From an uncultured Oscillospiraceae bacterium (GTDB taxonomy: Bacteria > Bacillota > Clostridia > Oscillospirales > Oscillospiraceae): a DNA stretch of 64,000 bases. Below, piece after piece: positions 45,841-50,871 of this stretch. The notes beneath the pieces were generated by a model. That model ran no database searches and was not told the DNA's origin. It was given only the letters and a program-made list of their open reading frames with translations. Numbering within the stretch: position 1 is the stretch's first letter; each line of letters starts with the position of its first letter. Where the stretch lies: NCBI GenBank assembly GCA_964586875.1, contig CAZPJH010000001.1:6721-70720 (forward strand), read 5' to 3'. Made by a program: the position numbers and the translations under genes.

Positions 45841-45882
45841 CCAGGGCGTGTTGCAAAAGAATGCAGCACGCCCTGGCTTTTT
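45841..45882. repeat. GGCGTGTTGCA-family palindrome / bidirectional terminator, copy 3
   Basis: ccagggcgtgttgca-aaagaa-tgcagcacgccctgg. Confidence 0.75.
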
Positions 45883-47911
45883 ATGCTTTCGGGAATGTAA
45901 GCGTTACTTTAAATAAGTCGCCGTCCAGAGTCAGATCCAGATGACCGCCCTGTACCTCTGTCAGACTTTTTGCAATGTTCAGTCCAAGGCCGCTTCCTTC
46001 TGTGTTTCGAGCGGTATCGCCTCGCACAAAACGCTCCAGTAGCTCTTCTGCTGTCATGTTCAGCTCATTTTGGGAAATGTTGCGGATAGAAAGATGCACA
46101 TGCTCTTCCGTGGAAGAAAGATCAATGTACACTCTACTATTGGGGGCAGCGTATTTGACCACGTTACTCAGAAGATTGGACAACACACGCCATAGAAGCC
46201 GTCCGTCCGCAGCGATCAGCAACGGCTCAGCCGGTGCGCGTACCACAGCGGCCAGGGTAGCGGACTCCAGTTTGTCGGCAAACTCCCCCAATGCCTGATT
46301 GGCAGTTTCGACAGCATCCAGGGTGATAAGATTGACATTGAGATTTCCGGTATTGGCTTTGCTCAGTTCCATCAGATCTTCGATCAGCTTTTTCAGCCGC
46401 TGAGATTGGCGAGAAAGCACATCCAAATATTGTACTTCATCTTCTTCGGAGTGGGGCTTTTCCAAAAGATCAACAAAGTTGATAATGGAGGTCAGGGGTG
46501 TTTTAATGTCGTGTGAAACATTGGTGATCAGCTCCGTTTTCATCCGTTCAGAACGCAGCTGATTTTGCATGGCGGTGTTGGCTGCACTGGAAAGGGAATT
46601 GAGTTGCTGGGCACAGGTTTTAAAAGCACCGGATAGGTATTTTTCGGGGATCTGATAATCCAGCGCACCCTGTGCCATCTTCTTCGCACCGATCAGGACG
46701 ACACCGAAGCAGTAGCCGCCGTAGCAAATAAGAAAAAGACTGGCCAAACCACACAGAAGGAACAAAAGGCGAAACACCGGTTCTCCATCCATCACGCCTA
46801 AAACAAAGCCGGCGAAGGTTGCAATGAACATGGCACAGCCGGTAATCAGCCATTGCCAAACCGTTGGCAGCATCTGCAACAGAGCCTGAGCCCCGTGGAA
46901 ACAGAGGCGACAGCATCGGCCAATCATACTGTGACTCCACCAATAGGCACCCTTGCATTTCCACTGGGCTGCCAGAATATAGATAAATCCCAACAGTAAC
47001 GGCATGGCCAGCGCAATGCCGATGAGATTGAATACAAGAACATGGAAGGTGTATATGGTGTCAAAAAGCCCATAGAACAGATGATGCAGAGCTAGGAAAA
47101 GCAGGAAAATAAAGAAAAGATAGATGTCCAGCGGAAGTTTGCTTAATCCATGTAGTTCTACAATGCCGCCTTTGCTGCAGCCGGCCACCCAAATCAGATA
47201 GACCAGCAACGCTATGCCCAGTAACAGGCTGAAAGCAAAGCCCCAGATGAACAGATACCGATAGGGGAAAAAGGTAGAGAGCATTTGGTAGTTGGTATTA
47301 TTAAGCTTACTTTGATCCAATGTGACTGTAGCAGTGAGGGTTATTTCCGTATAGCGAACCTGATAAGAGATCCGCTGGCCACTGACCAGCACTTCGTAAG
47401 TGTAGATGGGCCGCTGGGTGGTGTCGGGGGAGGAGGGGGTAGTGGCTGCCGCCGGTTCTGTGGTCTGGGTGTCTTCTCCGGGGCCCGGATCGCCGCCCTG
47501 ATTGTTGTCCTCGTTGTCACTTTCCGTGGGCACGATCACGGGGCAATCAATGCTCAGAGAATAATCGATGGTGATTCCATCTTTCACATTGTCGCCTCTG
47601 GTGAATACTTCTTCGCCGTCTTCGGTGATGCTGACCAGAGAGCCACCGTAATATGTCAAACCGTAAAGGTGATTGACCAATTCTTTGGGACAATTACCAA
47701 TGCTGGTGGCGGCATATTCTTTGGCGGCGGCCATAGCCAATTTTCGTCCTTCCTCGTAACAAAGGCTCTGGGCCAGAGAATCGGGATATTCCTGGTACAG
47801 GTTGGCGGAAAACAGGGATACTGCGCCGTAGCCGCAAAACAGGGTGGTTAGAAAACAAAGAGTGGCCAGCATAAAGGCGAGCAGTTTTAACAGAAGACTG
47901 TATCGCTTCAC
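45881..47911 (-). CDS. Multi-TM sensor histidine kinase
   Basis: TNVSHDIKTPLT, NLLSNVVKY, RFVRGD, GSGLGL. Confidence 0.92.
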   Translation of the reverse strand: MKRYSLLLKLLAFMLATLCFLTTLFCGYGAVSLFSANLYQEYPDSLAQSLCYEEGRKLAMAAAKEYAATSIGNCPKELVNHLYGLTYYGGSLVSITEDGEEVFTRGDNVKDGITIDYSLSIDCPVIVPTESDNEDNNQGGDPGPGEDTQTTEPAAATTPSSPDTTQRPIYTYEVLVSGQRISYQVRYTEITLTATVTLDQSKLNNTNYQMLSTFFPYRYLFIWGFAFSLLLGIALLVYLIWVAGCSKGGIVELHGLSKLPLDIYLFFIFLLFLALHHLFYGLFDTIYTFHVLVFNLIGIALAMPLLLGFIYILAAQWKCKGAYWWSHSMIGRCCRLCFHGAQALLQMLPTVWQWLITGCAMFIATFAGFVLGVMDGEPVFRLLFLLCGLASLFLICYGGYCFGVVLIGAKKMAQGALDYQIPEKYLSGAFKTCAQQLNSLSSAANTAMQNQLRSERMKTELITNVSHDIKTPLTSIINFVDLLEKPHSEEDEVQYLDVLSRQSQRLKKLIEDLMELSKANTGNLNVNLITLDAVETANQALGEFADKLESATLAAVVRAPAEPLLIAADGRLLWRVLSNLLSNVVKYAAPNSRVYIDLSSTEEHVHLSIRNISQNELNMTAEELLERFVRGDTARNTEGSGLGLNIAKSLTEVQGGHLDLTLDGDLFKVTLTFPKA

Positions 47912-48603
47912 TTGGATCCCTCCATTTTATAACCTTGCCCCCATACAACTTTGATGTAACGGGGCTCGGAAGGATTGATCTCAATTTTTTCCCGTAGGTG
48001 TCGGATATGTACGGCCACAGCGCCTTCGCTGCCCAGTGCGGTTTCCTGCCAAACGGACTCGTAGAGTGCTTTGGTGGAATAGACCTTGCCGGGGTTTCGG
48101 ATCAGCAGATTTAAAATGCTGTATTCCGTGGGAGTCAGGGTGACAGGGTTGCCGTCAACAGTAACATTTTTGGTGCGGTCGTTGAGGACGATGCCGCCGA
48201 TGGCGATAGTGTCCGGGGCGGCCTGGGACTGGGTGCCCAGAAGGGCATACCGCCGAAGATGGCTGCGCACACGAGCCAATACTTCCAATGGGACAAAGGG
48301 TTTTGTAATATAATCATCTGCGCCGATGTTCAGTCCCAAAACAATATCCTCAGTTTCGGATTTTGCCGTCAGGAACAGAATAGGCACATTGGAAAATTCT
48401 CGAATTTTAGAAGCGGTGGTGATGCCGTCCATGCCAGGCATCATGATATCCAAGAGGATCAGATGGATCTCATTGTTTTTGACAATGCTCAGGGCTTCGG
48501 CACCGTTATAGGCCACATGGAGTTGATAGCCTTCGGGTTTCAAGTAAATCGTTAAAGCACTGACAATATCTTTTTGGTCATCGCAGATCAGAACGTGATA
48601 CAT
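47908..48603 (-). CDS. OmpR-family response regulator
   Basis: CDDQ, LDIMMP, GADDYITKPF, VAVHIRHLREKIE. Confidence 0.93.
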   Translation of the reverse strand: MYHVLICDDQKDIVSALTIYLKPEGYQLHVAYNGAEALSIVKNNEIHLILLDIMMPGMDGITTASKIREFSNVPILFLTAKSETEDIVLGLNIGADDYITKPFVPLEVLARVRSHLRRYALLGTQSQAAPDTIAIGGIVLNDRTKNVTVDGNPVTLTPTEYSILNLLIRNPGKVYSTKALYESVWQETALGSEGAVAVHIRHLREKIEINPSEPRYIKVVWGQGYKMEGSK

Positions 48604-48671
48604 GGGGCGATCCCTCCTTTCCAAACATTATAGCAGATATCCACGAAAGATGAAAGTGGTATTTCAAAACA

Positions 48672-48705
48672 AATTTGGGGTGACAGCATTGCTGTCACCC
48701 CAAAA
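48672..48705 (-). terminator. Terminator after the CNNM gene
   Basis: tttggggtgacagc-att-gctgtcaccccaaa. Confidence 0.75.
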
Positions 48706-49959
48706 TCAATTTTCTACAGGTTCTTCTGCTTTCTCCTGCCGCAGGACGGATACCCGCTCTGCCCGGTGATTTTCCACAGCAGTAACGGTGATCTGCAAAT
48801 CCTGATAGATGAACTGATCGGATTCTTCCGGAATTCTGCCCAGCTGTTCGGCGATCCAGCCGCCCAGAGATACCATTTCGGAGTCGGCCTCAATGTCGAA
48901 ATGTTCACAGAATTCGTCCAGATCCATGGAGCAGTCCACTTCAAAGTGGTCGTCGCTGACCTGGTTGAACTCCTCGACAACGTCGTCGTGTTCATCGTAA
49001 ATGTCGCCGACCAGCTCCTCTAAAATATCCTCCATGGTAACGATGCCATATGTTCCGCCGTATTCGTCCAGCACCACAGCAATATGAGATTTGTTCTTTT
49101 GCAGCTGCCGCAAAAGAGGACTGATCTTTTCGTTTTTCAGAACGAAGATGGTGGGACTGATGATATCCTTGAGCTTTTTGCCGGTAATGCCGTTGCCGGT
49201 GTAGAAATCTTTCAGATGGATAACACCGACGATCTTATCGATGCTTTCCTCGTACACCAAGATTCGGGAGAATTTACTCTCGGAGAAGACCTGAGCGATC
49301 TGCTCTTTGGTGGCGGTGATGGGCACAGCTTCCAGATCCACCCGGTGGGTCAGGATATCCTCAGCTTCCAGCTCGGTAAATTCGATGGCATTGCGTAGCA
49401 GTTCGCCCTCATTTTGGTCGATGCTGCCGTCCTGCTCGACCTCGTCCACCAGCATCAGCAGTTCTTCCTGGCTCATCTTGGTGTCGGACTCTGTTTTGAA
49501 GATCTTGGCCACCAGCTTTTTCCAGGCGGAGAAAACGGCGGTCAGGGGGGTCAGTACAATGATCAGCGCATTCAGGAAGGGTGCGGAGAACATGGCGAAT
49601 TTTTCCGGTATATCCTTGGCAATGCTCTTGGGGGTGATCTCACCGAAGATCAGCACCACCACCGTGATGACTACCGTGGAAACAGTGGCACCGGTATCCG
49701 GGTTTTGCAGCAACTCCACAAACAGCAGTGTACCCAGAGAAGATGCACCGATGTTGACGATATTGTTGCCGATCAAAATAGTGGAGATCAGCTTGTCGTA
49801 ATTATCAGAGAGTTTACAGGCAAGGATCGCCTTTTTGTTGTCCTTTTCGGCAAGGGTCTTCGTTCTGGTCTTATTCATGGAAGAAAAGGCTGTTTCTGTG
49901 GCGGAAAAATAGGCAGAAAACAGCAGACATATTGCAATAATGATGATATAAGCGGTCAT
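48706..49959 (-). CDS. CNNM/DUF21-CBS-CorC (hemolysin family) transporter, probable Mg2+/Co2+ exporter
   Basis: FSATETAF, ILIGNNIVN, FGEITPKS, CBS pair, LDEYGG..GIVTMEDILEELVG. Confidence 0.92.
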   Translation of the reverse strand: MTAYIIIIAICLLFSAYFSATETAFSSMNKTRTKTLAEKDNKKAILACKLSDNYDKLISTILIGNNIVNIGASSLGTLLFVELLQNPDTGATVSTVVITVVVLIFGEITPKSIAKDIPEKFAMFSAPFLNALIIVLTPLTAVFSAWKKLVAKIFKTESDTKMSQEELLMLVDEVEQDGSIDQNEGELLRNAIEFTELEAEDILTHRVDLEAVPITATKEQIAQVFSESKFSRILVYEESIDKIVGVIHLKDFYTGNGITGKKLKDIISPTIFVLKNEKISPLLRQLQKNKSHIAVVLDEYGGTYGIVTMEDILEELVGDIYDEHDDVVEEFNQVSDDHFEVDCSMDLDEFCEHFDIEADSEMVSLGGWIAEQLGRIPEESDQFIYQDLQITVTAVENHRAERVSVLRQEKAEEPVEN

Positions 49960-50007
49960 GGAAACAGTAACTCCTTATTCTATGTTCAAAAATCTCCAAA
50001 AAGGTGC

Positions 50008-50049
50008 AAAAAAACACATCCACCCTGCTTCTTAGCAGCGCAGATATGC
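50008..50049 (-). terminator. Leader terminator overlapping the uORF stop codon
   Basis: mRNA cauaucugcgcugcu-aaga-agcaggguggaugug-uuuuuuu (several G-U pairs, one mismatch). Confidence 0.65.
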
Positions 50050-50109
50050 CATACAAACAGAACACATTATGAAGTTACAATTGGGCGCGTCACTACTGTC
50101 GCCGTCCAT
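50032..50109 (-). CDS. Putative 25-aa leader peptide MDGDSSDAPNCNFIMCSVCMAYLRC
   Basis: AGGAGGT RBS 8 nt upstream; lies between the promoter and the CNNM gene; below the ORF-track length cutoff. Confidence 0.65.
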   Translation of the reverse strand: MDGDSSDAPNCNFIMCSVCMAYLRC

Positions 50110-50144
50110 TTCAGACTACCTCCTGTCAAAATGATATTGCGACC

Positions 50145-50173
50145 ATTGTAGCCTAAGTGGGGACAGAAGTCAA
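50145..50173 (-). promoter_or_regulatory. Sigma-A promoter for the uORF-CNNM transcript
   Basis: TTGACT-17-TACAAT on the minus strand. Confidence 0.7.
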
Positions 50174-50337
50174 GGGCAGAAGTGTAAATTGTATAAAATG
50201 GACAAAAAAGGGGGATCATGTCCGATTTTCTCCCGGATTATACTGTGCGAAAATGGCAAAAACAGGGAAGGCTTAAAAGCCGCGTTTACAAGCAATGGCG
50301 GTTATGGTATAATGGACGAAAAAATGGAGGTATTTTT

Positions 50338-50871
50338 ATGAATACATTTGAAACCTTATTTTGCCGGAAGTCCGTCCGCAGCTATACCGGGCAACAGGTG
50401 ACGGAAGAAGAGCTGACGATGGTTTTAAAGGCGGCCAATGCTGCACCCATCGGACGTGGCATTTACGATGGGGTGCATCTGACGGTGGTTCAAAATCCGG
50501 ATCTGCTCCGGCAGATCGATGCCAATGGCGCAGCCTTCTTTGGCAATCCCAGCCTGACACCTCTGTACCATGCGCCCACATTGATCCTGGTGTCCTGCCA
50601 AAAGCCTGCCCCCGGTATGGAGAATGTGACATTCTCTAACGGGGCGATCGTGGTGCATAATATGGCTTTGGCAGCGGTAGAATTGGGCCTGGGTCAATGC
50701 TGCATCTGGGGTGCAGCCATGGCACTGTCCAAAAATGAAGATCTGGTGAAAAAACTCCACTTGCCCGAGAGTTTTACGGTCTGCTGCGGTCTGATTTTGG
50801 GAAAAACCGAGGAAAACTATACCTTACGACAGGTAGCAGAGCATCGCATTGGCTGCAATTTTGAGAAATAA
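50338..50871 (+). CDS. Nitroreductase family protein
   Basis: RKSVRSY, AANAAP, NMALAAVELGLG.C. Confidence 0.9.
   Translation: MNTFETLFCRKSVRSYTGQQVTEEELTMVLKAANAAPIGRGIYDGVHLTVVQNPDLLRQIDANGAAFFGNPSLTPLYHAPTLILVSCQKPAPGMENVTFSNGAIVVHNMALAAVELGLGQCCIWGAAMALSKNEDLVKKLHLPESFTVCCGLILGKTEENYTLRQVAEHRIGCNFEK

Follow-up and report, generated by a model that had tools for sequence, protein, structure and literature searches.

Leader-peptide attenuation as a candidate mode of control of a CNNM/CorC transporter gene in Clostridia

We have analyzed the leader region of a CNNM/CorC-type transporter gene in a 64,000-nucleotide stretch of DNA (the window) from an uncultured Oscillospiraceae bacterium (GenBank assembly GCA_964586875.1, contig CAZPJH010000001.1, positions 6,721 to 70,720). 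The comparisons presented here support the view that a translated leader open reading frame (ORF), coupled to an intrinsic terminator, gates the CNNM gene. We read the element as a leader-peptide transcription attenuator of the pyrBI type, which would work without an antiterminator RNA, and we put the probability of the full mechanism, sensing of Mg2+ included, at roughly 0.5. The two parts of this reading are not equally firm. The architecture, together with a logic in which the ribosome blocks the terminator, is likely to be right on the comparative evidence, while sensing of Mg2+ or other cations through destabilization of the ribosome has about an even chance. The attenuator is real, conserved and apparently undescribed; a full-text literature search, whose coverage did not extend to subscription-only papers, turned up no account of CNNM/CorB genes preceded by a leader peptide and a terminator.

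The leader lies on the minus strand, and all of its coordinates were verified letter by letter. Its parts, and the gene that it precedes, are as follows in the direction of transcription.

50145..50173, minus strand: sigma-70-type promoter, with a -35 box TTGACT (50173-50168), a 17-nt spacer and a -10 box TACAAT (50150-50145); score 10/12 in the promoter scan
50118..50124, minus strand: Shine-Dalgarno (SD) sequence AGGAGGT of the leader ORF, 8 nt 5' of its ATG
50032..50109, minus strand: leader ORF (upstream ORF, uORF) of 25 codons plus TAA, encoding MDGDSSDAPNCNFIMCSVCMAYLRC
50083..50106, minus strand: codons 2-9 of the uORF (DGDSSDAP), a conserved N-terminal motif of acidic and small residues and the proposed sensor
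50050..50082, minus strand: A/T-rich spacer, 27% GC, poorly conserved in sequence, which sets the distance from start codon to hairpin
50015..50049, minus strand: terminator hairpin of 35 nt, fold -19.3 kcal/mol
50008..50014, minus strand: T7 (U7) tract, at which a terminated leader RNA of ~130 nt is predicted to have its 3' end
49971..49976, minus strand: SD sequence AAGGAG of the CNNM gene, read from sequence
48706..49959, minus strand: CNNM / CBS pair / CorC_HlyC transporter gene, 417 amino acids, ATG at 49959 (Pfam)

These parts agree with the original prediction, which had named a promoter TTGACT-17-TACAAT, a ribosome-binding site AGGAGGT, a 25-codon ORF, a hairpin plus U7 with the last codons as its 5' arm, and a ribosome-binding site for the transporter 3' of the terminator; all of them are present. 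The gene downstream, which had been called CNNM/CorC, does carry CNNM, CBS and CorC_HlyC domains. The predicted transcript start lies about 30 nt 5' of the uORF, 36 nt separating the end of the -10 box from the uORF start, and the promoter is presumably active. The hairpin begins 60 nt 3' of the start codon. Its 5' arm (50049-50035) is made of the last five sense codons, its 3' arm spans 50028-50015, and the uORF stop codon is the first three letters of the loop TAAGAA (50034-50029). The stem contains one G-G mismatch and several G-U pairs, and the hairpin is absent from the list of a simple consensus terminator scan; it was called from folds together with conservation and covariation, and was kept because these support it. 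The promoter scan listed nothing promoter-like in the 48 nt that separate the U-run from the CNNM start, and the CNNM gene would therefore be reached by read-through. Since the neighbouring nitroreductase gene (plus strand, from 50338) is divergent to the leader, the hairpin is not the terminator of an upstream gene. Judged by its fold and its position, the hairpin with its U-run is an intrinsic terminator placed between the start of the leader ORF and the CNNM gene.

The same arrangement recurs in front of related genes. A CNNM protein search of 401 genomes of the same order, with an ortholog cut-off of E<=1e-100, found orthologs in 114 of these genomes, and the upstream DNA was examined at 110 loci of 42-100% identity. 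The original prediction had proposed an alignment of the regions upstream of orthologous CNNM genes for a uORF plus terminator. In the upstream DNA examined here, the same leader (promoter, SD, uORF beginning M-D, terminator) is present at 43 of the 45 CNNM loci whose identity is 55% or more; the other two are L052, with no leader seen, and L054, which has a long ORF beginning MDEPPRR. A clear terminator was recognized in 41 of these 43 leaders (40 by script and L004 by eye), and that of L030 and L042 is degenerate. Removal of three exact duplicates from the 43 left 40 unique leaders, which form the set used for detailed comparison.

An independent DNA-pattern sample was drawn with a pattern made from the uORF start and the terminator, using one genome per species. 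It gave at least 120 matches, of which 80 loci were fetched, and a true leader was defined by a stable hairpin (<= -11 kcal/mol). By this definition 62 of the 80 are true leaders, and the next gene on the same strand belongs to the CNNM family in all 62, although three of these genes are distant paralogs (26% identity). The other 18 loci match by chance: their hairpins are weak, they lack a CNNM gene, and almost all of them lie in records not titled Clostridia, while two have Lachnospiraceae titles. By record title the leader carriers are Oscillospiraceae, Acutalibacteraceae, Ruminococcaceae and unclassified Clostridia, and most of the assemblies come from gut samples. A scan of the source genome for like leaders returned 16 candidates, of which two passed every filter and only the CNNM leader is real. 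The other was rejected as the C-terminus of a 208-amino-acid ORF. Taken over the 43 of 45 close orthologs and the 62 pattern loci, the arrangement is, by comparison of sequences, more than chance.

Several features of the leader are those expected of a translated ORF. Of 39 leaders, 37 have a promoter-like site at the same position, whereas shuffled sequences give 4.5 +/- 2.0; the median distance from the end of the -10 box to the uORF start is 37 nt. The SD core is found in 36 of the 40 leaders of the protein-based set and in 56 of the 62 of the pattern-scan set. The uORF starts with ATG or GTG, and frame 0 is open as far as the hairpin in 37 of the 40 leaders, the other three having a stop 3-7 nt before the stem. 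In this stretch from start codon to hairpin, with its GC content of only 30%, stops interrupt frame +1 in 15 of the 40 leaders and frame +2 in 39, where they number 99. Asp makes up 44% and Ser 28% of residues 2-8 in the relatives, compared with a background of 4-6% in the long ORFs of the source genome, and at least four Asp, Glu or Pro (D/E/P) residues occur at these positions in 23 of the 40 leaders versus 11 of 1966 long ORFs of that genome. Asp is encoded by GAC or GAT and is at times replaced by Glu, while Ser codons are AGY except in one clade, which uses TCG. Within codons 2-8 the third positions are the most variable, with a mean entropy of 1.27 bits versus 1.02 and 0.90 bits at the first two. 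The SD, the start codon, the Asp/Ser-rich N-terminus and the open frame are, by these coding signals, kept at the level of the protein. The spacer that follows is A/T-rich in the relatives as well (mean 30% GC versus 49.7% for the genome).

The remainder of the uORF behaves differently. Its length ranges from 17 to 47 codons, and several relatives have versions of 41-47 codons. The conserved terminator arm GCRTAYY lies in frame 0 in 18 leaders, in frame 1 in 5 and in frame 2 in 6, and the recurrent peptide endings AYL..., YAFLR and MPFCV are the terminator read in different frames. Because every one of the three frames is used across the terminator, the C-terminal half of the peptide, its Cys residues included, is not selected as a peptide. 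Sensing of a metal or of cysteine by the four Cys residues, an alternative put forward in the original prediction, was rejected for this reason as a conserved property. A Cys does occur within residues 9-14 in 20 of the 40 leaders, and an Asn-Cys pair is found at residues 10-12 in 11 of them, versus 2.2 in shuffles.

The terminator stem is, as judged from covariation, the only part of the leader conserved as RNA. Its consensus lower stem has 11 pairs, nine of which show compensatory changes (39 of the 40 leaders; L017 was left out because its hairpin differs), and every aligned relative has a T-run 3' of the hairpin. Run on the entire leader, RNAalifold returned the terminator stem and no other conserved fold, and folding of the leader was no more stable than that of shuffled sequences (z -0.28, with a second value of -0.52). 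The search for an antiterminator was likewise negative: judged by duplex energy, the leader pairs with either arm of the terminator no better than shuffled leaders do (z +0.13 and +0.06, n = 42). An Rfam search of positions 49800-50450 on both strands gave no credible match at E<=10. Two weak hits (E 0.4-0.64) were discarded, since BTnc201 scored 19.9 bits against a gathering score of 105 and represents a plain terminator, and bxd_1 is at chance level. The M-box (RF00380) matched neither the leader (E<=10) nor any part of the whole 80%-complete genome, although control genomes were matched.

The position of the uORF stop with respect to the hairpin is constrained. Among the 40 leaders, 22 have the stop past the hairpin, 15 within it and three 3-7 nt before it; the corresponding numbers in the 62 pattern-scan leaders are 34, 21 and seven (4-12 nt before). 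The stop is thus never more than 12 nt 5' of the hairpin in either set (40/40 and 62/62). The distance from start codon to hairpin is 45-85 nt, with a median of 58 among the 40 leaders. The placement of the UAA at the junction of stem and loop, noted in the original prediction, holds for the window, where the stop opens the loop, but it is not a general feature of the family. The absence of an antiterminator, and a uORF stop that lies within or past the hairpin or no more than 12 nt ahead of it, are the reasons for reading the leader as pyrBI-type. These same observations lend comparative support to the earlier proposal that a ribosome that reaches the hairpin would permit read-through, and that one lost early would permit termination.

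Two further pairings within the leader were considered. In the window, GUAACUUC of the uORF (50071-50078) pairs with GGAGUUAC (49967-49974) over the SD of the CNNM gene (8 pairs, -12.8 kcal/mol, z -1.86). Sequestration of this SD by the uORF is not conserved, with a mean z of -0.54 and one of 25 leaders below -2; the test scored these 25 leaders only, because the rule did not find the CNNM start in the other 15 of the 40. In addition, ACAGU of codons 4-5 (50095-50099 in the window) is complementary to AYUGU of the Asn-Cys pair (50077-50081), and one clade carries UUCGG/CCGAA in place of the ACAGU/ACUGU pairing. As a pause hairpin inside the uORF this pairing was not established: it appears in some minimum free energy folds, but its stability equals that of shuffles and it is absent from the RNAalifold consensus. 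The complementarity could reflect a weak hairpin or a constraint at the level of codons.

More distant clades of CNNM orthologs have leaders of a different composition. Leaders beginning MDEPPP, MDEPPL, MDIPPL or MDEGPDP were found at 20 loci, 13 of which have a terminator placed in the same way. The leaders of the D-S-D-S-S-D-D kind and those of the MDEPPP kind share only their D/E/P character, its position directly after Met, the gene and the terminator. That these D/E/P leader classes converge before CNNM genes is the main reason why Mg2+, or ribosome-stabilizing cations generally, is preferred here as the signal.

The mechanism that we propose can be stated as a series of steps. Transcription would start about 30 nt before the uORF. 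The intrinsic terminator stands 60 nt past the start codon, and passage through it is the predicted sole route to the promoterless CNNM gene. By analogy with pyrBI, a first ribosome that follows close behind RNA polymerase would, on arrival at the end of the uORF, cover the 5' arm of the hairpin, and CNNM mRNA would be made. A ribosome slowed or lost at the first few codons would instead allow the hairpin to form, with release of the ~130-nt leader RNA. The sensor would be the N-terminus after Met (Asp and small residues in the window, Asp-Glu-Pro-Pro in other clades), acting through destabilization of the ribosome by the nascent chain (intrinsic ribosome destabilization, IRD), an effect that would be stronger at low Mg2+. 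High free Mg2+ or ribosome-stabilizing cations would then switch the exporter on, the inverse of mgtL-mgtA; such a response fits the gene, because the gene is of the exporter type. The competition of ribosome and hairpin is what we infer here, while the elements that precede it can be read directly as sequence features.

Work on other bacteria makes such steps plausible. In E. coli, termination at tR2 fell from ~90% to <10% when the stop codon ahead of it was shifted from a distance of 28 bp to one of 5 bp (PMC4824070). The hairpin of the pyr leader is the classic case of an advancing ribosome that inhibits termination, and a stall motif inserted ahead of the pyrL hairpin caused a 26-fold increase in termination in the absence of elongation factor P (EF-P) (PMC5021804). 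IRD, in the passages cited of one preprint, is caused by N-terminal sequences rich in D/E/P while the exit tunnel is empty, increases at low Mg2+ and is the means by which MgtL switches mgtA (bioRxiv 10.1101/2021.02.02.429294).

A number of observations weigh against the proposed mechanism, and they concern kinetics, the peptide and the transported substrate. A terminator 30 bp past a start codon was relieved only ~10% by translation in E. coli, where a ribosome seldom catches up with the polymerase within 100 nt if no pause couples the two (PMC4824070). The window terminator falls within this 100-nt zone. B. subtilis-like Firmicutes are, moreover, reported to show runaway transcription (PMC13323073, in the part cited).

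No universal pause element was found among the 40 leaders. The motif TTNTTT occurs in 10 of them, compared with 2.8 +/- 1.6 in shuffles, and is absent from the window leader; its carriers are L002, L017, L019, L023, L027, L028, L033, L034, L035 and L041, in which it mostly lies 13-22 nt before the terminator stem. We take TTNTTT to be the NusG-dependent pause signal of B. subtilis. As regards the peptide, Asp at position 2 and the M-D-x-D pattern are partly built into the samples, since the uORF finder required Asp or Glu as the second residue and M-D-x-D was a set part of the scanned pattern. The window peptide has only three D/E/P residues among the seven at positions 2-8 (D2, D4 and D7, with P9 just past them) and is a weak motif by this count; runs rich in Ser or Ser/Gly lie outside the published DE/P definition, so that abortion of translation by D-S-D-S-S-D is putative. 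Codons 4-7 (GAC AGT AGC GAC) are conserved as nucleotides beyond what a pure peptide constraint would give, and codon 5 is AGT in 24 of 25 cases where it encodes Ser; this suggests some constraint on the RNA or on the codons that is outside the peptide model. Finally, the CNNM protein falls below the NCBIfam cut-offs for GldE, for the polyamine exporter PaeA (model E 1e-44) and for CorC.

The last point bears on the alternative that survives best, namely that the ribosome-versus-terminator architecture is as described but responds to another input: polyamines, EF-P or ABCF-type factors and the energy state, the supply of Asp-, Ser- or Pro-tRNA, general translation capacity, or ribosome-targeting drugs. 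The architecture alone cannot tell which factor sets the speed of the ribosome, and the CNNM protein is not assignable to a substrate, PaeA being matched below its cut-off. Pausing modulated by the ABCF factor EttA reportedly takes place at acidic N-terminal residues. That EttA modulates ribosome pausing at all is stated in the part cited of PMC11282234; loss of EF-P raises termination after a polyproline run (PMC5021804), which is relevant to the MDEPPP leaders; and polyamines replace Mg2+ on ribosomes (PMC12421838, passages cited). What makes another input less likely in our view is that leaders as different as D-S-D-S-S-D and D-E-P-P-P have only their DE/P character in common and that both kinds occur only before CNNM genes, as the 62 true pattern matches and the single real leader of the source genome indicate. 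The supply of amino acids, furthermore, gives no rationale for control of a cation exporter.

A simpler possibility is that nothing is sensed, the uORF being a small protein gene or a constitutively translated ORF and the terminator a leaky one that merely holds CNNM transcription at a fixed, low level. Together the promoter, SD, ORF and terminator do make up a complete small gene, and the 41-47-codon versions of the uORF in several relatives would suit a small protein. We regard this as improbable: conservation is confined to the first ~8 residues, the ORF varies in length between 17 and 47 codons and its remainder falls in three different frames, so that no folded or functional peptide is maintained, and an independent gene would need neither the fixed relation of stop to hairpin nor the exclusive link to CNNM. 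Less probable still is a switch at the level of RNA (a riboswitch, or a target of an RNA-binding protein or small RNA) to which the ORF is incidental or secondary, because the nucleotide conservation of GACAGTAGCGAC and of the terminator arm GCRTAYCTG, and the complementarity of ACAGU in codons 4-5 to ACUGU of the Asn-Cys pair with its UUCGG/CCGAA counterpart in one clade, are outweighed by clear coding signals, by two Rfam hits that remain far below their gathering scores, by the lack of an antiterminator or of any conserved structure beyond the terminator in the folding comparisons, and by a pre-hairpin leader of only ~90 nt that is mostly A/T-rich and variable.

The attenuator reading is best placed by comparison with known systems. 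MgtL controls an importer, a P-type ATPase, that is on at low Mg2+, and it does so with alternative stem-loops and Rho-dependent termination. The window leader resembles the MgtL/mgtA system of E. coli and Salmonella in that a short leader ORF lies at the 5' end of the mRNA of a Mg2+ transporter, here a putative one, and it may also resemble that system in the acidic/Pro motif directly after Met (MEPDPT in E. coli; bioRxiv 10.1101/2021.02.02.429294, passages cited). The proposed abortive translation by IRD, stronger at low Mg2+, with the fate of the ribosome deciding transcription of the transporter, would be a further likeness. The differences are that the gene is a CNNM gene of the exporter type, predicted to be on at high Mg2+, that an intrinsic terminator is overlapped by the ORF without any alternative RNA structure, and that the motif of the window clade is rich in Asp and Ser, not in Pro; no sequence homology is claimed. 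The window leader is not a member of the MgtL family, but it may work like an inverted MgtL.

With pyrBI (pyrL) of E. coli the leader shares an ORF that runs through the terminator hairpin and the lack of an antiterminator, and a following ribosome would physically prevent the hairpin here as it does in pyrBI (PMC5021804, PMC4824070). The variable in pyrBI is the speed of the polymerase, whose uridine triphosphate-sensitive pauses let the ribosome catch up, whereas the conserved element here is the N-terminus of the peptide, so that the proposed variable is the progress of the ribosome. The class of the regulated gene differs as well, and no conserved pause signal was found in the present leaders. 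By its arrangement the window leader is of the pyrBI-like subtype of ribosome-mediated attenuators and not of the trp/his subtype. With mechanics that would be pyrBI-like and sensing that would be that of an inverted MgtL, it belongs to neither family.

Two enterobacterial systems concern genes of the same kind. An acidic/Pro-rich N-terminus has been proposed to raise the level of YbeX/CorC of E. coli, a Mg2+/Co2+ efflux factor of the CorC family, with Mg2+ (bioRxiv 10.1101/2021.02.02.429294; PMC12421838; passages cited of both); that motif is in the N-terminus of the protein itself and acts on its own translation, whereas here a separate leader ORF would act on transcription by way of a terminator. 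In Salmonella and E. coli the small leader ORF yoaL precedes mgpA (yoaE), a cation exporter gene with a CorC domain, and YoaL is suggested to raise mgpA expression at high Mg2+, the mechanism and the signal being given as unknown in the part cited of PMC12421838. YoaL differs from the window leader in overlapping the upstream region of mgpA and affecting its translation, and the same part of that paper describes no terminator mechanism.

The M-box (ykoK, RF00380) is likewise a 5' leader with an intrinsic terminator at Mg2+ transport genes of Firmicutes. It is a structured RNA of ~170 nt that binds Mg2+ directly and turns importers off, whereas the window leader is translated and has no conserved fold; its identity with the M-box is ruled out by the searches of the leader and of the 80%-complete genome reported above.

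Sensing of low Mg2+ is well known from PhoPQ, the M-box and MgtL. To our knowledge, the sensing of excess Mg2+ and the induction of exporters in bacteria are not well known. In the part cited of a 2026 preprint, the mechanism by which high Mg2+ induces corB of Salmonella is stated to be unknown. The present leader, small (~130 nt) and widespread in abundant gut and rumen Clostridia, offers a concrete mechanism for the control of a CorB-type gene. If the mechanism is correct, destabilization of the ribosome by the nascent chain would serve both directions of Mg2+ homeostasis, Firmicutes could use a pyrBI-like attenuator with the ribosome as antiterminator, and the leader would be a compact, cation-responsive on switch. 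It is a tentative suggestion, to which we give somewhat less than an even chance, that gut Clostridia use the translating ribosome itself as a sensor of excess cytoplasmic Mg2+, or of ribosome-stabilizing cations generally, through diverse destabilizing leader peptides (MD-S/G-D-S-S-D-D, MDEPPP, MDEPPL, MDIPPL and MDEGPDP), each fused to an intrinsic terminator. Transcription of CNNM/CorB exporters would then be confined to conditions in which ribosomes are sufficiently stable to complete the peptide; such an inverted MgtL would answer how bacteria detect high Mg2+.

The leaders of the distant orthologs begin MDEPPPSNN, MDEPPL..PPP, MDIPPLC or MDEGPDP. A distinct leader class is found at L064, L070, L072, L074, L076, L077, L078, L083 and L088 (48-50% identity) and also at L089, L100, L101 and L091. 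Its uORF starts with GTG or TTG and encodes a peptide beginning MDEPPPSNN, MDQPPPS, MDIPPLC or MDEGPDP, an N-terminus nearer to that of MgtL than the window peptide, and its terminator contains the uORF stop or comes directly after it. Two-tier leaders occur at L060, with L106, and at L085, with L108: a first uORF (MEDSG...) stops 4 nt before a GGCATAAC...TATGCC terminator, and a second, Arg-rich uORF of ~49 codons (MDSVPRRRR or MDSIPRRGW) precedes the CNNM gene. L071 has the second kind of uORF only. In apparently many of the orthologs without a leader the CNNM protein itself starts MDS, MDP, MDG or MDDPPL; L058, L059, L066, L068, L079, L080, L082, L105, L114, L118 and L121 are among the examples. 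These starts recall the IRD N-terminus proposed for YbeX/CorC of E. coli.

The window CNNM protein matches the Pfam models for CNNM (DUF21), the CBS pair and CorC_HlyC with E-values of 2e-53, 1.5e-13 and 5e-18. Its best solved relatives are 7m1t and 7m1u (E 3e-51), aligned over residues 5-324, which we take to be archaeal CorB. Export of Mg2+ by this protein is putative, the substrate being assigned from the family only. CNNM matches were found in two of 24 other genomes of the source genus, many of which are incomplete. The nearest CNNM orthologs (66-67% identity) sit in families other than that of the source, while other genera of the source family have orthologs of 42-59% identity at 16 loci; of these, seven (48-50% identity) carry a leader of the MDEPPP type, three have no leader seen and the rest were not fetched. 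The CNNM gene and its leader may have undergone horizontal transfer or frequent loss. One further feature closes the CNNM transcription unit.

48674..48704, no single strand: strong bidirectional terminator with a 14-pair stem, from the terminator scan, which ends the CNNM transcription unit

On the same strand, 3' of this terminator, are a response regulator gene (48624-47908) and a histidine kinase gene (47911-45881), the region as a whole extending over 45881-48704.

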